A DNA stretch of 64,000 nt, taken from NCBI GenBank assembly GCA_965116685.1, contig OZ220707.1, positions 787,655 through 851,654 of the forward strand, written 5' to 3'. A program made the translations under genes and the position numbers. Below are positions 5,489-28,869 of this stretch, in pieces. The notes below the pieces were generated by a model, which saw only the letters and a program-made list of their open reading frames with translations, was not told the DNA's origin and made no database searches. Each line of letters starts with the position of its first letter. The first letter of the stretch is position 1. Source of the DNA: Rhodothermales bacterium (GTDB lineage: Bacteria; Bacteroidota; Rhodothermia; Rhodothermales; Bin80).

Positions 5489-6301
5489 TCAGCGGCGGAT
5501 CATGGCAATTGACTTCGTCCCACCCTCCAGACTTGACTGCCCGCGAGACAACCGAAAACCTCCCGGGTGGCGCCAATCATCTAGTGCATCCACATTGATC
5601 GCTGGATCGCGCACGATAAAATTCATGAGCTGCCCACGATAAACCGCATCCTCTTTCACGACACTTCCATCTCCATTGTAGAACCTCACCGTTGCTCGTG
5701 AAACATGAGATCCATCATCGTCCCATGCCTCGTGATAGGACTCTGGCAATAAATCCCATACAAAGCGATTCCGTACCACTTTATTCAGAAACGGGCTGAT
5801 ATATGGCTTCCAGAAAGTAGTCAGCAGACCGATTTCGGGAAGAGCGGCAGACATTTTGAGCTTGTATTCCGGCAACAGATCATCCGGGCGAAGCAGTCCG
5901 AATAGACCACTGAAAATGACACTGTTTTCCAATAGACGTCTCTGCGCCCCTGTAGGAAGTCCATCAAAGTCAACTGCACTGAAAAATGGATCTGGCACAA
6001 ACCGTTCACGTGCTGACATCAACGGTGCAGAATAAACAGCCTTTGCCAGTTTCACACTGTCTGAGAGTCCTTCGGGGCCAAAGACATCTTTTAGGGCCTC
6101 CGTTTCGTCACGTCGGATAAGCTCCAACAACTGATCTAAAATTTCCCGGCGTTGGGGGATCAACTGATGAAAATAGTTGAAGGTCGTCTTAGAGCGATAA
6201 TCGAAAACATCTGGAGCGAACGGATTCCCCCCGCTCGCCATGAAATTCGCCGACGCAACCAGCACTGCAAACCGATCGTCGATAATTCTCCTCCCTTTCA
6301 A
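5489..6301 (-). CDS. yaaA: YaaA/DUF328 family peroxide-stress protein
   Basis: The central motif FSGLFGLLRPDDLLPEYKLKMSAAL...LTTFWKPYI matches the E. coli YaaA pattern [20 protein letters not shown]...LYQFWGDII. Confidence 0.7.
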   Translation of the reverse strand: MKGRRIIDDRFAVLVASANFMASGGNPFAPDVFDYRSKTTFNYFHQLIPQRREILDQLLELIRRDETEALKDVFGPEGLSDSVKLAKAVYSAPLMSARERFVPDPFFSAVDFDGLPTGAQRRLLENSVIFSGLFGLLRPDDLLPEYKLKMSAALPEIGLLTTFWKPYISPFLNKVVRNRFVWDLLPESYHEAWDDDGSHVSRATVRFYNGDGSVVKEDAVYRGQLMNFIVRDPAINVDALDDWRHPGGFRLSRGQSSLEGGTKSIAMIRR

Positions 6302-6621
6302 GGTTCCGAACGTCCTGAAGACGCAGCCCCCATGATCTCTTCCATCTGCGAATTTATTTCCTGCGCCTGCTCATTTGCTTTTGCTACAAGCGCCTCCCCT
6401 TCAGACTTCGCGCCTGCATTTTCCGGGGGCTCTTTCATTGTATCTGTCAAGCTTCCAACCTGTTTAGCCAACTCCTCCAAGTGAAAGGTTACCCGACGAC
6501 GTAACCGACTACCTTCTTCAGGAGCCAGAAGAAGTCCCAGTGTAAAACCTACTCCTCCCCCCATCAGAAGCCCCCAACCTAGGGCGCGTGTCACATCTGC
6601 TAAACCATAATTCCTAGACAT
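6298..6621 (-). CDS. YtxH domain-containing protein
   Basis: 107 aa. It has an N-terminal TM/Gly-rich segment GWGLLMGGGVGFTLGLLLAPEEGSRLRRR followed by a helical acidic tail. There is a 4-nt overlap with the yaaA-like start. Confidence 0.6.
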   Translation of the reverse strand: MSRNYGLADVTRALGWGLLMGGGVGFTLGLLLAPEEGSRLRRRVTFHLEELAKQVGSLTDTMKEPPENAGAKSEGEALVAKANEQAQEINSQMEEIMGAASSGRSEP

Positions 6622-6700
6622 TGCTCTTGGACTGTATATAATGACTACCTACCGACCTCAATTCCAAGCCAGATCAAAGACCAGTATCAAATCGTCAAAC

Positions 6701-6796
6701 CTAACGATTTCGCTTTTTATGACGATTTTTACGCAGTCGTTTTTTGCGCTTATGTGTTGCGATCTTATGACGCTTCCTTTTCTTGCCACAGGGCAT
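6701..6796 (-). CDS. Very small, highly basic protein (31 aa), AURKAIP1/COX24-like motif
   Basis: Hand translation gives MPCGKKRKRHKIATHKRKKRLRKNRHKKRNR then stop (TAG at 6703-6701). It is below the ORF-track cutoff. The KRKRHK.ATHKRKKRLRKNRHKK pattern is a small conserved ORF I recognise from Bacteroidota annotations. Confidence 0.6.
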   Translation of the reverse strand: MPCGKKRKRHKIATHKRKKRLRKNRHKKRNR

Positions 6797-6932
6797 GTAA
6801 TGATTTATTTTCTAGTTAAGGTACAACAGGACCAACAAAGAACCATATTCTACTGGGAAGCGCACTGAGTAGTTCCATTCTCGTACTCTGTCCATTCCAT
6901 CAAAATAACTTATATTTCTTACACTCAGACTG

Positions 6933-7763
6933 GTGACTCTCATTTCTACCATAGACAATTACTTTATTCCGCCAAATCTACAATCTCACGAATCCGGCGG
7001 ATTCGAATATATTGATTCAGGTGACGATCTTGAGTGTCCGCCGATCCTTCTCCTGCATGGACTTCTAGGAAATCCAGAGGGCTGGTTTGATGCGGCTTCC
7101 GCACTGGTAGACAATGGGTATCGTGCAATCGTCCCCAATTTGAAGATGGATTATCTACCCCGTAGACAGTCCAATGTACAGGGGCTCGTAGACTACCTAC
7201 ATACATTTATCACTTTCCTGGGGCTGGAGGAAATGATCCTGGTTGGCAATTCTCTGGGCGGGCAAATTGCCATCAGATATATTACCTGTCACCCGGAACG
7301 TGTTGCTGGTCTGATACTATCCGCCTCTTCAGGGATTTACGAAACAGAAGTAGGGCATACAACTTTTCGACGTAATGATCGTGATTATATTCGAGTCAAA
7401 GCGGAAAAGACATTCTACGACCCAGCAATGGTAACCGAAGATCTGGTTAATCGCATATTTGATATTGCTACGAGCAGATCACGCGCACTTCGTTTTGTCT
7501 GGCTTGCTCGCAGCTCCATGAAGGATCTCGTGGTTGACGAACTCCACGAGATTAACGTACCCGCTTTCCTCATCTGGGGTTCAGAAGATCAGATCACCCC
7601 GCCTGATGTCGCCTACATGTTTCAGGAACTACTTCCTAATGCAAAATTGCAGTTCATCGAAAAATGTGGCCATGCTCCAATGATGGAGCATCCTGAGGCA
7701 TTCAACCAATTGATGATCGAATTCCTGGATTACTCGTTCAGCAAAATCACTGCTTCTGTCTAA
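6933..7763 (+). CDS. Alpha/beta-fold hydrolase
   Basis: 276 aa with a GTG start. Features are the HG oxyanion motif (LLLHGLLG), the nucleophile elbow GNSLGG, and a C-terminal GHAPMMEHPE. Confidence 0.85.
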   Translation: MTLISTIDNYFIPPNLQSHESGGFEYIDSGDDLECPPILLLHGLLGNPEGWFDAASALVDNGYRAIVPNLKMDYLPRRQSNVQGLVDYLHTFITFLGLEEMILVGNSLGGQIAIRYITCHPERVAGLILSASSGIYETEVGHTTFRRNDRDYIRVKAEKTFYDPAMVTEDLVNRIFDIATSRSRALRFVWLARSSMKDLVVDELHEINVPAFLIWGSEDQITPPDVAYMFQELLPNAKLQFIEKCGHAPMMEHPEAFNQLMIEFLDYSFSKITASV

Positions 7764-20730: not shown

Positions 20731-21510
20731 ATGGCCCAACTGACCAATGTATTGTTCGTCACAGGAGAAATTGACCCATTTGCTAATGAAAGTGACATTG
20801 GAATATTAACGCGCTATTTACCCAAGGGGCTGAGTGAAGATGGTTCTTTTGCAACCAGGATTATGATGCCGCGCTATGGGACGATCAGTGAGCGGAAAAA
20901 TCGACTACACCAAGTGATTCGCCTCTGCGGTACAAAGGTGAGTATGGGCAGCCAGACAGAAACACTTGCCGTCAAGGTCGCAGCAATTCCCGGAACACGG
21001 TGCCAAGTCTACTTCATGGACAGCAAGCGCTTTTTTAAACGAAAAGGTTTGCACCAGGATAATTTGGGGAATACGTTTGACGATAATTCGGCACGTGCAC
21101 TCTTTTTTGCGCGCTCAACTCTGGAAACCGTGCGCAAGTTACAATGGAAACCCGATGTCGTCCATGCGTTCGGCTGGATCAGTGGCTTTTTGCCCTTACT
21201 CTTGGCGACGGAATACAAGAATGATGAATTATTTGAATCCGTTAAAACAGTAGTCTTTACTCCAGATCGTATTGAGGCGGATGCGGTCATTTCCAATGAC
21301 CTCATTAAGAATATGAAGCTTTCACTCAATGGGGATATTTCTGGAATGAGTCTGTCTGATCTGGGTGCCAAATTTTCGGATATTGTCGCGTACCCTCCCT
21401 CTCTGACCCCAGACTCTGAAACATCGGTACATTTCAGTACCGATACGCAGGAAATGATTTTGCAAGCCACGGATCTCTATCAAATGGCATGCAGTGCCGA
21501 ACCCGCCTGA
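20731..21510 (+). CDS. Short glycogen/starch-synthase-like protein (N-terminal catalytic-domain half only)
   Basis: MAQLTNVLFVTGEIDPFANESDIG...MPRYG matches the Glyco_transf_5 starch-synthase N-terminus. It is only about 260 aa, as in the short Bacteroidota form. The ORF opens at a GTG at 20689. Confidence 0.75.
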   Translation: MAQLTNVLFVTGEIDPFANESDIGILTRYLPKGLSEDGSFATRIMMPRYGTISERKNRLHQVIRLCGTKVSMGSQTETLAVKVAAIPGTRCQVYFMDSKRFFKRKGLHQDNLGNTFDDNSARALFFARSTLETVRKLQWKPDVVHAFGWISGFLPLLLATEYKNDELFESVKTVVFTPDRIEADAVISNDLIKNMKLSLNGDISGMSLSDLGAKFSDIVAYPPSLTPDSETSVHFSTDTQEMILQATDLYQMACSAEPA

Positions 21511-21630
21511 CCGGGAACATCAAGCCTGTCTTTGAGGGTATCTTCCCGTTGGCCGTGCTTTAGAGTGCCAATATCGTCGATTCCTCGTTCTTGGGCCACT
21601 ATCTTGCCCATCTCGATCATTTTATGCGTT
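21469..21630 (+). repeat. Left copy of a 162-bp imperfect direct repeat bounding the accessory island
   Basis: It aligns colinearly with 27599..27760 at an exact offset of 6130 bp. I count roughly 17-20 differences by eye, including two compensating 1-nt indels. It covers the last ~42 nt of the glycogen-synthase-like CDS, the intergenic region and ATGCGTT. Confidence 0.9.
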
Positions 21631-21863
21631 TAATGGCACCCCGGCGAAAGACCATACCTCTCCGCAACAAAAAAGGCGAAATTATCAACTTGGATCATCA
21701 CAATAATCATGATAAGACTCTTGAAATGCCACTTGATGTGGAGAACATCCTAAACCATTCTCCGGTTCTATGAACAGGTACCGCAGGATAGAATATCAAT
21801 ACAGGCGGCAAGGGAGTTTTTTGCGTTTATGTATTTTACGCAAAGTATGGAAATGAGGGCAAT

Positions 21864-23450
21864 ATGACGCAGAAAAAGAAGAAATCATCTAGAAAAAAAG
21901 CCGCATCTGAGGCAAACAGTGCTACCGTCGGATACGAAGCCGAGCTCTGGGATATGGCCAACGCGCTCCGGGGAAGTATGGACGCGGCCGAATACAAGCA
22001 CGTCGTTTTGGGACTCATATTTCTCAAGTACATATCCGATGCATTTGAGGAAAAACGGCGGGAGCTCGAAACACAGATATCCGAGGGAACGGATCCAAAT
22101 GACCCCGATGAATACCGTGCGGAAAACATATTCTGGGTGCCTCCTGAAGCCCGCTGGCAGGATATAAAGGCACAGGCAAGGCAGCCTACTATTGGGAAAC
22201 TCGTCGATGATGCCATGATGGGGATCGAGCGAGTGAACAGAGAGCTTAAGAGTGTCCTGCCAAAAAACTATGCCCGCCCAGCGCTGAATAAACAAAGACT
22301 TGGCCAGGTAATTGATCTTATAAGCAACATAAATGTCGGCGACAGAAATGCACGGTCAAAAGATGTTCTGGGGAGGGTCTACGAATATTTTCTCTCGCAA
22401 TTTGCAAATGCCGAAGGCAAGAAAGGGGGAGAGTTCTACACCCCCCGCTGTGTAGTGAAACTGCTGATGGAGATGCTTGAACCCTACGGGGGACGAGTTT
22501 ATGACCCATGCTGCGGCTCTTCAGGCATGTTTGTACAATCCATTGAATTCGCTGCAGCGCACGCGGGAGGAAGTGTCAGGGGAAGATCGAAGCTTCCTAA
22601 AGGCGTCAGACCTAATATTTCAATCTACGGACAGGAATCAAATTATACGACTTGGTGTCTCGCAAAAATGAATTTGGCCATTCGCGGCATTGAAGGCCAG
22701 ATTGCCCACGGAGACACTTTTCTCGATGATCGATTCCCCGATCTTAAGGCCAACTTCATTCTCGCTAATCCACCGTTCAACGTAAGTGACTGGGGAGGAG
22801 AAAGGCTTAGGGAAGACAAGCGCTGGAAATACGGCATTCCACCCAAGGGAAATGCGAATTTCGCGTGGGTGCAGCACATGGTTCACCACTTAGCACCCGG
22901 CGGTACGGCGGGTTTCGTGCTCGCAAACGGCTCTATGTCTTCTTCCCAGAATGCCGAGAGCGAAATCAGGAAAAACCTTGTAGAGGCGGGCATAGTCGAC
23001 TGCATCGTGGCACTTCCAGGACAGCTTTTCTATTCAACGCAGATTCCTGCGTGTCTCTGGTTTCTCTCGCGCCGGAAAGGAGAGAAAATTCTTTTTATTG
23101 ACGCGCGTATGCTCGGCCGCATGGTTGATCGCACACACAGGGAACTTACATATGAGGAAATCTGCCGCGTAGCCGAAACGTATCGTGCGTGGAGAGTCGA
23201 GAAAAATACTGGAGAATACAAAGATGTCTTGGGGCTTTGCAAAAGCGTGGATCTGGATGAGGTGCGGCGCCATGGCTATGTTCTCACTCCGGGGCGCTAC
23301 GTGGAAGCAGAGATCGAAAAAAATGACGACGAGTTATTTGAAGACAAGATGAAGCGTCTTACCTTAAAACTCCGCAAGCAGCGGGAAGAGGCAGTCAAGC
23401 TTGACGCAGCCATAACCTCCAATCTTAAAAAACTGGGATATGATACCTGA
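21864..23450 (+). CDS. hsdM: Type I restriction-modification system, DNA methyltransferase subunit M
   Basis: The HsdM N-terminal domain is [34 protein letters not shown]. The AdoMet motif is [12 protein letters not shown] and the catalytic motif is NPPFN. Confidence 0.95.
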
Positions 23451-23498
23451 TGACACAAATTTTATGTATTGTATATCGGAGGATACAATCGTAACACA

Positions 23499-23921
23499 AT
23501 GAAACTTGATGTTAGTTCACTCGAACGCGCAGTGGGGGAAATGGGAGATTTTCTGGAGAAATTTAGAGGATATGAAGCCTCCGACGACGTTCTGTTTTTT
23601 CGGATGCTCCAAGCAGGCGTTATTAAAGCATTTGAATTCACCTACGAACTGTCCGTCCGCTTCATCCGGCGACAATTGTCCCAAACATCTTTTAACATAG
23701 CTAATGTTGATGCCTTGGATTTTCGCAACATGATGCGGGTTGCGGCGGATGCAGGGCTGATCGCCGAACCCAAAAACTGGTTTAAGTACCGAGAGAAGCG
23801 CAACATCACAAGTCATACCTATGACGAGTATAAGGCTCAGGAAGTTCTTGCTATTGCAGGTGATTTCTTGGAAGATGCCCGTTTCCTGCTTGCCGAACTT
23901 ACGAGAAGAAATGCTCCATGA
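23499..23921 (+). CDS. HEPN-domain nucleotidyltransferase substrate-binding protein (HI0074/HepT-like)
   Basis: AGVIKAFEFTYELSVRFIRRQL and the Rx4-6H HEPN motif RNITSHTYDE are present. Its stop overlaps the next start (ATGA at 23918-23921). The ORF track opens at a TTG at 23469. Confidence 0.8.
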   Translation: MKLDVSSLERAVGEMGDFLEKFRGYEASDDVLFFRMLQAGVIKAFEFTYELSVRFIRRQLSQTSFNIANVDALDFRNMMRVAADAGLIAEPKNWFKYREKRNITSHTYDEYKAQEVLAIAGDFLEDARFLLAELTRRNAP

Positions 23922-25453
23922 ACGCACGCATTGACATCTCGCCGGACGATCTGGAAACCGTCCAGGAAATTCTTGTCAATCATGTTCCCGAGCTTGAAGT
24001 CCGGGCCTTTGGGTCTCGTGTTACTTGGACAGCGAGGCAATACTCGGACCTTGATTTGGTATTAATGACGGCAGACCCGCTCGATATCTCGCGTCTTGCC
24101 GACCTGTGCGAGACCTTTTCGCAATCCGATCTGCCATTTCAAGTAGATATAGTGGACTGGGCTTCCACTTCTGAGAGTTTTCGGGAGATAATCAAAAAAG
24201 AATGTGTGGTTGTTCAGGATAAACCTGAAGACAAGAATAATAATTGGCCAATCATAAAACTAGATTATTGTGCCACACTCAGTGGCCAGACAATCTTGCC
24301 GTCTAACGCAATAGATTTACCGTATATAGGCCTAGAACATATTGAAAAAGGCCAGCTGCATCTTACAGGACATGGGAAAGCGAGCAGTGTTTCTAGCGTG
24401 AAAACACATTTTCACTACAACGATATCCTTTTCGGAAAACTGCGTCCATATTTCCGAAAAATCATCATGGCCCCTTTTGAAGGAATCTGCTCAACCGATA
24501 TCTGGGTTATCAGATCGAAGGAACATGTAGACCAGTTATTCCTTTTCTATTGTCTAGCTTCTCAAGCCTTTGTAAATTTCGCAACCCGTTCATCCGAGGG
24601 TACACGAATGCCAAGAGCAAAATGGGATTATGTTTCTCAATACGAAATTCAGCTTCCCCCGCTCCCCGAACAACGCACCATCGCTCACATCCTCGGCATG
24701 TTGGACGACAAGATAGAACTGAACAGGCAGATGAACAAAACACTGGAGGCGACGGTACGGGCGCTGTTCAAGTCCTGGTTCATCGATTTCGAACCGGTCC
24801 GGGCAAAGATGGAAGGTTGGGATACGGGCTTCCCGCATGACATCGCCGACCTGTTTCCTGACCGGCTGGTGGATTCCGAGATGGGAGAGATTCCAGAAGG
24901 GTGGGAGGTAAAGTTGCTGAAGGACTGTATGAACCTAACTATGGGGCAGTCACCACCGGGTAACACCTACAACAACCACGGAGACGGCTTGCCCTTCTTC
25001 CAAGGCCGAGCGGAGTTTGGTTTCCGCTATCCTGAGAAACGAAGATTCTGTTTCGCACCGACTCGCGTTGCGGATCCAGAGGATACGCTGGTCAGCGTCC
25101 GGGCGCCCGTCGGGGACATCAACTTGGCTTGGGAACGGTGTTGTATCGGACGGAGCTTAGCAGCACTGAGACACAAGTCGGGCTCAAACTCATTCACTTA
25201 CCATTCAGCTTGGGCCTTGCGGCGAGAATTTGAGCAATACGAGCAAACGGGAACCGTGTTCGGTGCAATCAACAAAGGTCAGTTTGAAGTCTTAAAGGTG
25301 GTGGAGCCCGACGCTCGCGTTATTGAAGCGTTTGACACTATAGCCGTAAACCTGGACGCGCGGATCAGATCGAACGTTAGTGAATCTCACGCCCTCGCCA
25401 CACTTCGCGACACGCTGCTTCCCGAGCTTCTTTCTGGAGAAGTTCGACTCTAA
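23918..25453 (+). CDS. hsdS: Fusion ORF: minimal nucleotidyltransferase (MNT/MntA-like, ~100 aa) joined in frame to a complete Type I specificity subunit HsdS (two target-recognition domains, TRDs)
   Basis: The N-terminus AFGSRVTWTARQYSDLDLVLM...FQVDIVDW is the GSx..DxD MNT signature. From about residue 105 there is a full HsdS, with TRD1, the central conserved region LPPLPEQRTIAHILGMLDDKIELNRQMNKTLE, TRD2, and the C-terminal conserved region LRDTLLPELLSGEVRL. No stop codon separates the two parts. Confidence 0.85.
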   Translation: MNARIDISPDDLETVQEILVNHVPELEVRAFGSRVTWTARQYSDLDLVLMTADPLDISRLADLCETFSQSDLPFQVDIVDWASTSESFREIIKKECVVVQDKPEDKNNNWPIIKLDYCATLSGQTILPSNAIDLPYIGLEHIEKGQLHLTGHGKASSVSSVKTHFHYNDILFGKLRPYFRKIIMAPFEGICSTDIWVIRSKEHVDQLFLFYCLASQAFVNFATRSSEGTRMPRAKWDYVSQYEIQLPPLPEQRTIAHILGMLDDKIELNRQMNKTLEATVRALFKSWFIDFEPVRAKMEGWDTGFPHDIADLFPDRLVDSEMGEIPEGWEVKLLKDCMNLTMGQSPPGNTYNNHGDGLPFFQGRAEFGFRYPEKRRFCFAPTRVADPEDTLVSVRAPVGDINLAWERCCIGRSLAALRHKSGSNSFTYHSAWALRREFEQYEQTGTVFGAINKGQFEVLKVVEPDARVIEAFDTIAVNLDARIRSNVSESHALATLRDTLLPELLSGEVRL

Positions 25454-25458
25454 GATCC

Positions 25459-25710
25459 CGAATCGTTCGCTCCCGACACCTCTTCCGATGCAAAGAGAAC
25501 TCCAAGATGAGCGAGGCAGAGATGTTTGAACGACATTTTGACGGCATCTGCAATGCTCTTTGTCATGGACAGTCCAACGCCAAAGCATGCAACGGCAAAA
25601 TCCAGGAGGTCAAAACCATCGGTAGAGGATGCAGAACGTTTGAAAACTTTCGAGTTGCGATCCTTTTCTTCTGCGGAGGACTAGACCTCTATCCACAACA
25701 TTCGGGGTAG
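25459..25710 (+). pseudogene. C-terminal remnant of an ISL3-family transposase
   Basis: The frame reads ...HFDGICNALCHGQSNAKACNGKIQEVKTIGRGCRTFENFRVAILFFCGGLDLYPQ. This matches the conserved ISL3/IS1001-type C-terminus (sN...EG.N.KIk.iKr.a.GfRn.enF...i.f..GgLdLyP). Only about 60-80 codons are present and the catalytic domain is missing. Confidence 0.6.
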
Positions 25711-25754
25711 AACCAAATATTTTGAAGGAAATTGGAGTCTGTAGTGATAAGCCC

Positions 25755-26888
25755 ATGCCCCACATAAAGCATTTTTCCGTTCGCGGCTTCAAGTCAATTC
25801 GTGAGCTCGAAAATTTCGAATTGAAACCTCTGAATGTGCTGATCGGTGCCAACGGAGCCGGTAAAAGCAACCTTCTGAGTCTGTTTAAAATGCTCTCCGC
25901 CCTTTCGCAGAAGCGTCTTCAGCTTTTTGCCAAAAACGAGGGTGGCCCGAATGCATTGCTGTTCGGCGGACGAAAACTAACTTCAAAGCTTGAAATAGCC
26001 CTGTCATTTGAAAACAACCACTACGAATACGCGTTTTCACTCGAACCGACAACTGACTCAGTAGCCTTTTCCGGCGAGAAGCTCTTCCCAGGAGTCGCTG
26101 GAGATTTCAGCGCTGAAGATTTCAACACTGGCGGTTTCAAAACAGAGGCCGGTGCCTCAGTATGGCCCGGCGGATATAGCGAATCATGCGTGGCGGATAT
26201 TAAGTATGGGGAATTTGCATCTTATTTTTTGCCCAATATGAGACGCTGGCGCGTGTTTCACTTTCAGGACATGAGCGATACGGCTCACGTGCGAAATCAG
26301 TCGAAGGTACGCGACAACCTTCGACTAAGACCGGACGCTGGGAATCTTGCACCTTTTCTGCGCAATCTCCGTGAACATCATCCTGACCACTATCAAAGAA
26401 TCATAAATGTAGTCCGCCTCTCGGTTCCGTTTTTCGGAGACTTCGTCTACCGCAAGAATCTGGGCGACAGCATGGATCTTGAATGGTTTGAGGAATGGGG
26501 AGACTCGGACACACCGTTTGGTCCCCGACAGCTCTCAGGCGGTACGTTGCGTTTCATCTGTCTTGCTACTCTGTTAAATCAGCCGGAAAACCTCCAGCCG
26601 AACCTCATTCTCATTGACGAACCCGAGCTGGGGTTGCATCCATTTGCACTGACGCTACTGGCCGAAATGATCCAGCAGGCAGCCGACTTGCGACAGATTA
26701 TTGTCTCAACGCAATCCGCGGAACTTATAAGTCATTTTGAACCCGAAGATATCGTGGTCGTCGATCGCAAGAACGATGAATCCGTCTTTAAAAGGCTGGA
26801 CTCAGAATACCTTGCCGACTGGCTTGAAGATTACACGCTCGACGAGCTCTGGAAAATGAACGTGCTTGGTGGCAGACCCCGACCATGA
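25755..26888 (+). CDS. ABC/SMC-like AAA ATPase (AAA_21/AAA_15-type)
   Basis: Walker A LIGANGAGKSNL, ABC signature QLSGGTLRF, Walker B LILIDEPELGLHP. The H-loop position reads STQS. The ORF opens at a TTG at 25722, but the ATG at 25755 (MPHIKHFSVRGFKSI) is preferred. Confidence 0.85.
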   Translation: MPHIKHFSVRGFKSIRELENFELKPLNVLIGANGAGKSNLLSLFKMLSALSQKRLQLFAKNEGGPNALLFGGRKLTSKLEIALSFENNHYEYAFSLEPTTDSVAFSGEKLFPGVAGDFSAEDFNTGGFKTEAGASVWPGGYSESCVADIKYGEFASYFLPNMRRWRVFHFQDMSDTAHVRNQSKVRDNLRLRPDAGNLAPFLRNLREHHPDHYQRIINVVRLSVPFFGDFVYRKNLGDSMDLEWFEEWGDSDTPFGPRQLSGGTLRFICLATLLNQPENLQPNLILIDEPELGLHPFALTLLAEMIQQAADLRQIIVSTQSAELISHFEPEDIVVVDRKNDESVFKRLDSEYLADWLEDYTLDELWKMNVLGGRPRP

Positions 26889-27454
26889 AGACGGTCATTA
26901 TTGCCTGCGAAGGAGGAACTGAAGAAGCTTTTGTGAACAAATTTCTCTGTCATAAGCTCTGGCCAAAAGGAGTGTTTGCAGAACCACGCCTCATCCCGAC
27001 TTCGCGTCGTGAAAAAGGCGGTGCACTTAGCGGACAACGCGTACTCCGCTACCTTCGAAATACCCTTCGGGAACGGCAAAACACCTATGTCACGACATTT
27101 TTCGATCTGTTTTCCCTGCCGAAGAACTTCCCTGGGCTTGAGGACATCTCCGAGACGACGAACCCACTTAAACGCGCGACAGAAATCGAGACTGTATTTC
27201 GTGATGCCGTTATACGCGAAGCAAGATGTCGGCGCGAACGCTTTTTTCCTCACATTCAGCCCTATGAATTCGAAGCTCTGCTGTTTTCGGACACGACCGG
27301 TTTTGTGAAGGTGGAACCCGAATGGAAGGCATTTGCCGGGAAACTCGCGAGCATACGCGAAAATTTTGAAAGTCCTGAGTACATAAACGACGGAACCAAT
27401 ACGCATCCCTCAGCGCGACTTCAGAATCTTCGGTATTGTTTCAACTCAGAATGA
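26885..27454 (+). CDS. DUF4276-like protein (possible Toprim-like effector), possibly C-terminally truncated
   Basis: There is an ATGA overlap with the ATPase gene. The motifs IIACEGGTEEAFV, IQPYEFEALLFS and PEYINDGTNTHPSARL match my recollection of the DUF4276 family pattern. The protein stops shortly after the PS.RL motif, where family members usually continue for about 30-40 more residues. Confidence 0.65.
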   Translation: MKTVIIACEGGTEEAFVNKFLCHKLWPKGVFAEPRLIPTSRREKGGALSGQRVLRYLRNTLRERQNTYVTTFFDLFSLPKNFPGLEDISETTNPLKRATEIETVFRDAVIREARCRRERFFPHIQPYEFEALLFSDTTGFVKVEPEWKAFAGKLASIRENFESPEYINDGTNTHPSARLQNLRYCFNSE

Positions 27455-27464
27455 AACAATACCG
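27431..27464. terminator. Perfect 13-bp stem hairpin overlapping the DUF4276-like stop codon
   Basis: The sequence is cggtattgtttca actcagaa tgaaacaataccg. The stop TGA (27452-27454) lies inside the 3' arm. Confidence 0.5.
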
Positions 27465-27598
27465 CTTTCGAGCGTGCACATTACGTAGTACCGGGCGGTC
27501 ACCACCAAAGTAGGCGTCCTCCTGTAAAGGGCTCGAGTATACAATCAGCGGTAGATCGTGATGAGCACAGAACCGCCTCATGCCTTCAGTGATACAGA

Positions 27599-27760
27599 AC
27601 GGATCTCTATCAAATGGCATGCAGTGCTGAACCCGCCTGACTGGGAACATCGAGCATGTTTCGAGGGTACGCCTTTGTTGGTCGTGCTTTAGAATACCAA
27701 TATCGTCGGCTTCCTCGTTCTTGGGCTATTGTCTTGCCCATCTCGGTCATTTTATGCGTT
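27599..27760 (+). repeat. Right copy of the 162-bp imperfect direct repeat bounding the accessory island
   Basis: See the left copy. It contains a pseudo 3' end of the glycogen-synthase-like gene (TDLYQMACSAEPA-stop, one silent change) plus the functional upstream region and start codon of the next core gene. Confidence 0.9.
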
Positions 27761-28869
27761 CAATTCTTTTTTTCTTTCTACTGACTGCCCCACTGGTGAT
27801 GGTCTCCTGCTCGGATGCCGTCTCCGATGTCGGCTTGGACCTCCTGGGGAGCGAAGTAAATCTTCAGACAAAAACGGTGCGGGTCACCTCATTTTCAGCA
27901 TCTGAACTGGTTGATATCACGGGATCTGCACCCCGTGTGCTCGTGGGATCTGTTAACGATCCTCTGACTGGACAGATTGCAACCCATGGCTTTCTTGACT
28001 TTGCCGGCGATTTTTCTGGAGCCCCATCGGATAACATTAGTCGTGTCCAACTAAAACTTTCCCGTAATTATAATTTTGGAGATACCCTGGCGACGGTTCA
28101 ATTTGAGATCCATCAAATTCTCCAGGAATGGAATCATACCGGACGCCGATCCAATACCAGCCTAGACGTCGGTCCTGCTATTATGACCGTAACCACTGAG
28201 GATATGCTGACGATTGTGGATCTGCCGGACTCATGGATTAGTGAGAATGAAGATGTACTTCGGAGCGATGACTTTGAGACGGAATTTCACGGATTCGCCC
28301 TGATCGAAAATGGCAGTGGCCAGGTGATTGGCTTTACCTCTACCACGACCGTTTTGGAGGTAACCTCATCCGGCGGATTGACTACCTACAACGTAAGCAG
28401 TACCCATACACAGATTGAGCGTTCGCGCCCTTCTGACACACCAAGTGGATTTTTACTGTTCCAGGATGGCGCAGGACCTGCAATTGAGCTTAACTTTGCA
28501 TTTGATGAATTTGAGAACCAACCCATTAATGGCGTGGAGTTGATCTTCCGCGTGGATACCACTGCTAGTCAGGTCGCTCCAGAGAACTTTGTCCGCCCTC
28601 TTCCACGTGTCCTACAATTGGTTGCCGTTCCTATAGACGATACCGATCCTGCCGCCCTGGTTGGACAGGCGACGATCAATGATGGAAATTATCGCTTCTC
28701 GGAACGCGATGTTAGTGTCTTTTTCCAGCGTGTATTTTTTGGGTCACAGCAGTATAGCCGTCTGGAATTACGCGCTCCTATTGTAAATCATTCCCTGAAC
28801 GCTGTGCTGTTTTACGGTGCAGATGCCCAGGATTTATCTCCCCGGGCAACTATTATTTTGTCTCCATGA
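27754..28869 (+). CDS. Lipoprotein, possibly DUF4270 family
   Basis: It has a signal peptide and lipobox MRSILFFFLLTAPLVMVSC. Its position immediately downstream of the short glycogen-synthase gene is where a DUF4270 gene sits in many Bacteroidota. The family call rests on context rather than motifs. Confidence 0.55.
   Translation: MRSILFFFLLTAPLVMVSCSDAVSDVGLDLLGSEVNLQTKTVRVTSFSASELVDITGSAPRVLVGSVNDPLTGQIATHGFLDFAGDFSGAPSDNISRVQLKLSRNYNFGDTLATVQFEIHQILQEWNHTGRRSNTSLDVGPAIMTVTTEDMLTIVDLPDSWISENEDVLRSDDFETEFHGFALIENGSGQVIGFTSTTTVLEVTSSGGLTTYNVSSTHTQIERSRPSDTPSGFLLFQDGAGPAIELNFAFDEFENQPINGVELIFRVDTTASQVAPENFVRPLPRVLQLVAVPIDDTDPAALVGQATINDGNYRFSERDVSVFFQRVFFGSQQYSRLELRAPIVNHSLNAVLFYGADAQDLSPRATIILSP

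Follow-up and report, generated by a model that had tools for sequence, protein, structure and literature searches.

In a type I restriction–modification (R-M) operon of a Rhodothermales bacterium, a minimal nucleotidyltransferase (MNT) domain of the HI0073 type is encoded in one uninterrupted reading frame with the specificity subunit HsdS, immediately downstream of a gene for an HI0074-type HEPN protein. The window analysed here is a stretch of 64,000 nucleotides (positions 787,655–851,654 of the forward strand of contig OZ220707.1, GenBank assembly GCA_965116685.1), and all positions are counted from its first letter. With the gene order hsdM, hepT-like HEPN and mntA::hsdS, the locus is what remains of a type I R-M operon. 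The MNT::HsdS fusion is a standard and widespread architecture that is generically labelled in databases. We consider it probable that the HEPN protein and the MNT domain are a type VII toxin–antitoxin (TA) pair of the HI0074/HI0073 subfamily which is embedded in the R-M operon, with the AMPylating antitoxin serving as the N-terminal domain of HsdS. By analogy with characterized systems, the HEPN protein would be an RNase and the MNT domain would oligo-AMPylate its Tyr108. The genes and domains at the core of this proposal are the following.

21864–23450, + strand: hsdM, type I N6-adenine DNA methyltransferase subunit, 528 aa (HsdM_N 1e-26; N6_Mtase 3.8e-103; PADLOC MTase_I 1e-201)
23499–23921, + strand: HI0074-type HEPN protein, 140 aa, putative HepT-like RNase toxin (PF08780, TIGR01987, 1JOG)
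23918–24220, + strand: MNT domain (HI0073-type minimal nucleotidyltransferase), aa 1–101 of the fusion (1NO5, Polbeta)
24221–24241, + strand: linker KPEDKNN, aa 102–108, short, charged and variable (sequence and junction alignment)
24242–25453, + strand: complete HsdS, aa ~109–511 plus stop, comprising target recognition domain (TRD) 1, central conserved helix, TRD2 and C-terminal conserved helix

The fused reading frame and its HEPN partner

The open reading frame (ORF) of the fusion (23918–25453, + strand) runs without interruption and encodes 511 amino acids. Pfam assigns Polbeta/NTP_transf_2 to residues 14–101 (Polbeta, 2e-09) and Methylase_S to residues 162–277, and several PADLOC Specificity_I profiles extend nearly end to end, from residue ~87–110 to residue 511 (best E = 7e-97). 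In a search of the PDB, the closest solved relative of residues 3–104 is HI0073 of Haemophilus influenzae (1NO5, E = 3.8e-26), and the rest of the protein matches the S subunits 5YBB_D and 3OKG (E = 1e-43). The ORF and the Pfam, PADLOC and PDB matches bear out the proposal of an earlier note, made from the letters of the window, that a complete MNT domain runs into a two-TRD HsdS without a stop codon. The catalytic residues of the MNT domain are G32-S33-x10-D44-L-D46 and D77, and GS-x10-DxD is the catalytic motif in the work on FhepTA and MntA (PMC13000451). Seven positions (G32, S33, R34, D44, D46, D77 and W81) are invariant in 40 aligned fusion proteins. The linker contains neither a stop codon nor a Met, and the only in-frame alternative start near the junction is a GTG at 24206–24208, which encodes V97 within the last MNT strand; it is the in-frame GTG that the earlier note had placed near 24205. 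The linker is only ~5–8 residues long, because unfused HsdS homologues start to align at about residue 105–110 of the fusion (e.g. L013). An AlphaFold2 (AF2) model of the fusion, built on a 40-sequence alignment, contains the long helices 249–289 and 466–506 in its HsdS part, where most ten-residue blocks have a predicted local distance difference test score (pLDDT) above 80.

The HEPN gene starts at ATG 23499, a choice backed by homologues (TTG 23469 is a possible alternative), and ends at 23921. Its product scores 98.4 bits with PF08780 (cut-off 31.8) and 80.8 bits with TIGR01987, the HI0074 family (cut-off 55.8), and aligns to the HI0074 structure 1JOG with E = 6.5e-25, including RNITSHTYD. 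The motif R101-N-I-T-S-H106-T-Y108 (Rx4HxY) is encoded at 23799–23822, and each of the residues R, T, H and Y in R-x-x-T-x-H-x-Y reaches a conservation of at least 90% among 47 HEPN homologues. An RX4HXY motif with the Tyr as acceptor of a nucleoside monophosphate (NMP) has been defined previously (PMC11586414), and in the characterized systems the Tyr adjoining the RNase motif accepts AMP units from MntA (PMC13000451). The TGA stop codon of the HEPN gene and the ATG of the fusion form an ATGA overlap (23918–23921), the two genes being adjacent and co-directional. The earlier description of an HI0074/HepT-type HEPN protein with RNITSHTY, ATGA-coupled to the fusion, is thus confirmed by PF08780, TIGR01987, 1JOG and the sequence. 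In the mechanism that we propose, the MNT domain would use ATP to oligo-AMPylate Tyr108 beside R101-x4-H106, by which the RNase would be kept off, and translation of the fusion may be coupled to that of the toxin via the ATGA overlap.

Another assignment follows the original interpretation of HI0073/HI0074; in it there is no TA pair, and the HEPN and MNT parts are a two-subunit nucleotidyltransferase that HsdS brings to the DNA or the R-M complex to act on another target. HI0073 would then be the nucleotide-binding part and HI0074 the substrate-binding part, and an R-M subunit, a nucleic acid or a phage factor would be modified. The closest solved relatives, 1NO5 and 1JOG, and the NCBI family name 'nucleotidyltransferase substrate-binding subunit' agree with this assignment. 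In the HEPN protein, however, the Rx4HxY motif, which comprises both the RNase and the acceptor residues, is conserved in full at 90% or more, and every homologue tested (from Shewanella, Aphanizomenon and Legionella) is a toxin neutralized by Tyr AMPylation (PMC13000451, PMC11586414), which renders a two-subunit enzyme improbable.

In Shewanella the MNT gene comes first (SO_3165/SO_3166; PMC4621449). The earlier note was right that HEPN precedes MNT in the window, an order opposite to that of Shewanella, but not that it is unusual: in the experimentally studied Legionella pair, lpg2920 (HEPN) precedes lpg2921 (MNT) with an 8-bp overlap (PMC11586414), an unfused second HEPN/MNT pair in the same genome also has HEPN first, and 45 of 46 fused loci are alike. 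HEPN-then-MNT is the normal order for the HI0073/HI0074-type family and is 'reversed' only relative to Shewanella. In related loci the HEPN gene runs up to or into the start of the fusion, the HEPN frame often ending a few bases beyond it, and hsdM ends ~20–450 bp before the HEPN gene; the corresponding gap in the window is 48 bp. The second pair lies on the minus strand at C1:3013042–3012292 and comprises a HEPN protein of 140 aa with RNDTAHDY and an MNT of 113 aa, whose genes overlap by 14 nt. The two proteins are ~29–35% identical to the island pair.

Pairwise distance matrices of 35 loci, including the window, were compared by Mantel tests. The HEPN and MNT distances are correlated with r = 0.82 (p ≤ 0.0005), and the correlations with HsdM are r = 0.15 for HEPN (p = 0.052) and r = 0.14 for MNT (p = 0.041). 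From the contrast between 0.82 and ~0.15 it follows that HEPN and MNT travel and diverge as a cassette and that neither tracks hsdM, with the caveat that tight linkage alone can also yield such a correlation. A local example of the cassette diverging apart from hsdM is the island copy of the congener G003, in which HsdM and HEC-01A (the product of a neighbouring gene described below) are 90% and 89% identical to those of the window, yet HEPN is only 48% and MNT 72% identical. Identity to the window was not significant as a proxy for co-evolution (rho = 0.24), and the pairwise distances were used in its place. Judged by these sequence comparisons, the HEPN protein and its MNT partner diverge together, in the manner of a cognate pair.

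Distribution of the fusion and of split forms

The first 135 residues of the fusion were searched against a collection of 5.8 billion proteins (E ≤ 1e-3), with matches restricted to proteins of 281–894 aa, which returned 245 clusters at 90% identity; nearly all of the 120 matches listed from these clusters carry PF18765 together with PF01420. The MNT part of the aligned fusions is 55–77% identical to that of the window, the subsequent TRD varies freely, and the junction is a short variable stretch without a conserved Met in an alignment of 70 of the 120 listed fusions. When the MNT domain alone was searched against 1.84 billion cluster representatives (clusters at 50% identity), HsdS sequence followed the domain in 126 of the best 150 representatives, and only 15 of these 150 were 140 aa or shorter. 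A genome scan with one genome per GTDB species gave 80 loci with 51 MNT matches. The MNT is in the same ORF and frame as HsdS in 46 of them, from more than 12 phyla, and is not joined to HsdS in the other five. Of the 46 fused loci, 45 have a HEPN gene immediately upstream: tblastn found it in 41, and a hidden Markov model (HMM) built from these HEPN proteins found it in four of the remaining five; hsdM comes before HEPN. The hosts include Gemmatimonadota, Latescibacterota, Poribacteria, Acidobacteriota, Chloroflexota, Thermodesulfobacteriota, Alpha- and Gammaproteobacteria, Actinomycetota, Nitrospinota and Spirochaetia, as well as one Nitrosopumilus archaeon. Within the genus of the window, eight of 18 other species have an MNT in an open frame of 400–668 aa. 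Viral contigs of IMG/VR yielded 38 HsdS relatives, all of which matched from residue 82 or later, and no fused copy was found among them.

The earlier note had allowed for the case that orthologous loci uniformly have two genes and that the window holds a degenerate read-through. With homologous fusions found in more than 12 phyla and 46 of 51 loci fused, the fusion is genuine, and the alignments indicate a real single-frame architecture under purifying selection in many phyla. It is also present in cultured organisms under an uninformative name. Plasmid pZMOB01 of Zymomonas mobilis ATCC 10988 (L101 3–5154) has a coding sequence (CDS) of the HI0074 family, a 527-aa 'restriction endonuclease subunit S' and hsdR, and the same label is attached to the same architecture in several Xanthomonas spp., Pseudomonas (Ectopseudomonas) mendocina, Methylolobus aquaticus and Ferrovum. 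These records bear on the suspicion that the continuous frame is an assembly or sequencing error, or recent decay in a dying operon. Such a suspicion could draw on the deletion of hsdR and on a run of six A residues at 24192–24197, 20 nt before the junction. The same join nonetheless recurs in 46 assemblies that are independent of one another, and complete RefSeq records such as those of Z. mobilis pZMOB01 and Xanthomonas spp. have it too; hsdM, HEPN, MNT and HsdS are all of full length with intact motifs, and the closest relative, L030, is identical to the window in architecture. We regard an artefact or decay as very improbable indeed.

Split versions of the operon also exist. On plasmid pAP1342-3 of Acetobacter pasteurianus (NZ_CP021512.1; L102 3990–10746) the genes are hsdM, HEPN, MNT, hsdS and hsdR, and the MNT of 101 aa (6001–6306) and the HsdS of 423 aa (6299–7570) are encoded in different frames with an 8-nt overlap. 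The separate MNT gene between hsdM and hsdS which the earlier note had mentioned is therefore real on this plasmid. The split (pAP1342-3) and fused (pZMOB01) versions are both carried by plasmids of culturable Alphaproteobacteria and are thus convenient for experimental work. In a tree of MNT domains (103 columns, poorly resolved), stand-alone MNTs are scattered among fused ones and well supported branches force at least five changes; the fused state does not appear to be one clean clade. The join is probably made and unmade easily by 1-nt indels, and the fused state is dominant in the clade despite this lability.

Such observations raise the question of whether the join is neutral, i.e. whether a 1-nt indel merely fuses overlapping genes while MNT and HsdS each act as if separate and toxin control remains unlinked to the state of the R-M system. 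The 8-nt overlap in another frame in the Acetobacter operon, the interspersion of stand-alone and fused MNTs in the tree, the five unjoined MNTs among 51 matches and the catalytic action of MntA in known systems (PMC13000451) are all as expected of a neutral join. The prevalence of the fused state (126 of the best 150 representatives and 46 of 51 loci) and the lack of a conserved internal Met or start codon at the junction are not, and a fusion that persists across more than 12 phyla while TRDs shuffle freely is hard to square with neutrality. On this evidence a neutral join seems rather unlikely.

Several variants of the architecture were encountered. Proteins of ~700 aa carry PF04480/PF18741 (DUF559/MTES_1575, with a Vsr-like endonuclease fold) C-terminal to MNT::HsdS, so that an S subunit has both an antitoxin domain and a nuclease domain; examples are P0011, P0019, P0020, P0022, P0024–P0027, P0030 and others, and L060 9842–12148. 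Duplicated modules (P0002–P0004; L053, L062, L067 and L069) take several forms: MNT domains repeated in tandem within a single protein, a free MNT ahead of MNT::HsdS, and two to three successive HEPN genes upstream of the fusion. On a Zymomonas-like Logan contig (L106 13031–16442) the order M-HEPN-MNT::S-R is followed by two RVT_1 reverse-transcriptase genes, and the operon is flanked by PIN/antitoxin pairs in a dense defence island.

The genomic island and the loss of hsdR

Five genes (hsdM, HEPN, MNT::hsdS and HEC-01A/B) make up a 6.1-kb island between direct repeats of ~166 bp. Its remaining features are as follows.

21469–21634, no strand: left ~166-bp direct repeat (three collinear repeat blocks, 91–93% identical, spacing 6129–6130 bp)
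25722–26888, + strand: HEC-01A, AAA_21 ABC-type ATPase, candidate defence system (PDLC04175 6e-129; AAA_21 1.3e-27)
26885–27454, + strand: HEC-01B, DUF4276 protein, partner of HEC-01A (PDLC04188 1e-52; DUF4276 8.6e-32)
27430–27465, no strand: deletion scar at the hsdR position of the sister species (alignment to G003 L097)
27599–27764, no strand: right ~166-bp direct repeat, partner of the copy at 21469–21634

The duplicated sequence comprises the 3′ end of the core gene upstream, the beginning of the core gene downstream and the intergenic region between them. The congener G017 has an empty site, and the congener G003 has a larger island with the same repeats, in which hsdR is located right after HEC-01B. 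The hsdM gene of the window, which adjoins the HEPN gene, is intact and its translation contains the motifs NPPF and DPCCGSSG. The HEC-01A and HEC-01B genes belong to the same operon and share an ATGA overlap, and the same pair is found between hsdS and hsdR in L002, L030, L062, L063 and G003, a shared position which identifies HEC-01 as a recurrent passenger of this type I family. Two further HEC-01-like pairs are present in the genome (C1:12550–14357 and C1:223858–225277). In a promoter and terminator scan of the island the number of sites was not above that in shuffled sequence, and Rfam gave no match on 21000–28000.

Most related loci have a full-length HsdR downstream (HSDR_N + SWI2_SNF2 + T1RH-like_C), these proteins being 60–80% identical to one another. 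In the complete one-contig 3.76-Mb genome of the window, TIGR00348 had no match, tblastn with five HsdR proteins from related loci gave no hit at E ≤ 0.01, and no second hsdM or hsdS is present. Positions 27300–27429 of the window align to G003 L097 6245–6116 and positions 27466–27899 to L097 2596–2162, and the ~3.5 kb that is missing relative to G003 (L097 = G003:C9, 2597–6115) holds a full-length hsdR (L097 2851–5967). Restriction was therefore lost by a clean deletion of ~3.5 kb, and hsdM, HEPN and MNT::hsdS were kept intact. With no hsdR in the genome, this type I system is reduced to a methyltransferase, and the fusion can be part of M2S but not of a restriction complex. The R-M complex to which the earlier note had linked the antitoxin thus stands as far as hsdM and hsdS are concerned and falls as a restriction complex, since hsdR is deleted from this genome.

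Comparison with known systems and possible function

HI0073 and HI0074 of H. influenzae, the closest solved relatives of the two parts (1NO5 and 1JOG), are two free-standing small proteins, whereas the MNT of the window makes up the N-terminal domain of HsdS (511 aa), encoded within a type I R-M operon. The Legionella pair lpg2920/lpg2921 resembles the window pair in having HEPN first, an overlap of the two genes, an RX4HXY motif with Tyr as the NMP acceptor and a short MNT without the C-terminal α4 helix (PMC11586414), and the HEPN protein of the window matches the Legionella structure 8XDJ with E = 6.8e-07. The Legionella MNT is, however, a separate protein, and no R-M context is mentioned in PMC11586414, where a text search for 'restriction' gave no match. 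HepT/MntA of Shewanella (SO_3166/SO_3165) shares the GS-x10-DxD antitoxin, the Rx4-6H HEPN RNase and the oligo-AMPylated adjacent Tyr (PMC4621449, PMC13000451), but its MNT gene comes first, MntA represses its own promoter and there is no HsdS fusion; the similarity to the Shewanella structure 5YEP is only distant (E = 0.0058). FhepTA, a fused MNT-HEPN protein of Shewanella, provides a parallel in that the MNT is covalently fused to its partner as a built-in regulatory domain (PMC13000451). In FhepTA the MNT is joined to its cognate toxin, whereas the window combines the MNT with the R-M specificity subunit and has the toxin as a separate protein. PrrC of EcoprrI (type Ic) is likewise encoded as a HEPN RNase inside an hsd operon; it is held latent by the EcoprrI proteins and serves as a second line of defence when a phage disables restriction (PMC3710099). 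PrrC, in which an ABC ATPase is fused to HEPN, is silenced through its non-covalent binding to EcoprrI, whereas silencing in the window would be enzymatic (AMPylation) and exerted by the HsdS-fused domain. The split hsdM-HEPN-MNT-hsdS-hsdR operons have the same order and families as the fused ones and differ in that MNT and HsdS are separate products in different frames.

The finding combines known kinds, namely a type VII TA pair and a HEPN protein embedded in an R-M operon. In a survey of HEPN proteins (PMC3710099), those in R-M systems are fused to nucleases, helicases and ATPases, and HEPN-M is fused to MNT, restriction endonuclease-like resolvase and methylase domains; an MNT-HsdS architecture is not reported there. 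No paper describing an MNT-HsdS fusion was found in the searchable literature, an absence that is limited to that library.

With the antitoxin covalently joined to HsdS, the RNase would be kept in check only for as long as the cell makes an intact HsdS and, probably, the M2S core. It is possible, although we hold it to be somewhat doubtful, that the RNase thereby signals whether the R-M core is present or intact. It may act as a back-up in the manner of PrrC, set free once a phage inactivates or depletes the R-M core, or it may be an addiction device which protects hsdS from loss. The latter would fit an island that has shed hsdR yet kept hsdM, HEPN and MNT::hsdS. Tentatively, and with less than even confidence, MNT::HsdS can be pictured as the sensor arm of a guard, with the HEPN RNase bound to the M2S(R2) core and under continuous AMPylation by the fused domain. 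Removal or distortion of HsdS by an anti-restriction factor (a DNA mimic or an Stp-like peptide), by proteolysis or by loss of hsdS would release the RNase, and the infection would be aborted or the segregant killed.

A number of points weigh against an HsdS-borne type VII antitoxin with such a function. The MNT of the window scores 30.8 bits with the NCBIfam model MntA_antitoxin, below the cut-off of 60, which places it in a distant HI0073-type subfamily and not among the MntA equivalogs. The MNT part of the AF2 model is poor (pLDDT 34–81). A point of difference from type VII TA pairs, whose antitoxin is small and free-standing, is that the MNT here is residues 1–101 of a 511-aa HsdS. MntA acts catalytically in known systems (PMC13000451), and tethering is not obviously needed. 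The join is evolutionarily labile, as stand-alone MNTs are interspersed among fused ones and the split form differs by reading frame only. In L001 and L002 the R..H motif of the HEPN protein is lost or degenerate and the fusion is kept. The G003 copy (L097 15800–17900) has GP instead of GS in the MNT and a frameshifted hsdS followed by ~8 kb of extra DNA, with an intact HEPN motif (RNITSHVY). This decay could be an error of the metagenome-assembled genome (MAG) or a real, tolerated loss of the antitoxin; unless it is a MAG error, the HEPN protein is tolerated without an intact MNT::HsdS. In Z. mobilis ZM4, deletion of hsdSp, which may encode such a fusion, caused no growth defect (PMC8432527). 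The plasmid system HsdRMSp of ZM4 is a candidate member of the family and was not used as evidence; two CDD superfamilies are given for HsdSp, and x027 between hsdMp and hsdSp is skipped (PMC8432527). The primers of the ZM4 paper had no match in pZMOB01 or in the Zymomonas-like Logan contigs.

HepT/MntA (type VII) modules rank with the most abundant TA pairs, and their natural trigger is a matter of debate. The conserved covalent link between antitoxin and HsdS is a strong hint that the trigger in this large clade is the state of the R-M core. If the guard proposed above is true, type VII TA systems would gain a defined physiological input, and an enzymatic analogue of PrrC–EcoprrI would extend over many phyla. 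Hundreds of proteins whose sole label is 'restriction endonuclease subunit S' contain an additional catalytic domain and have a toxin partner encoded upstream, and the deletion of hsdS for transformability may also remove an antitoxin. The R-less island described here offers a natural case in which restriction has been lost and hsdM, the putative toxin and the antitoxin-S fusion have been kept.

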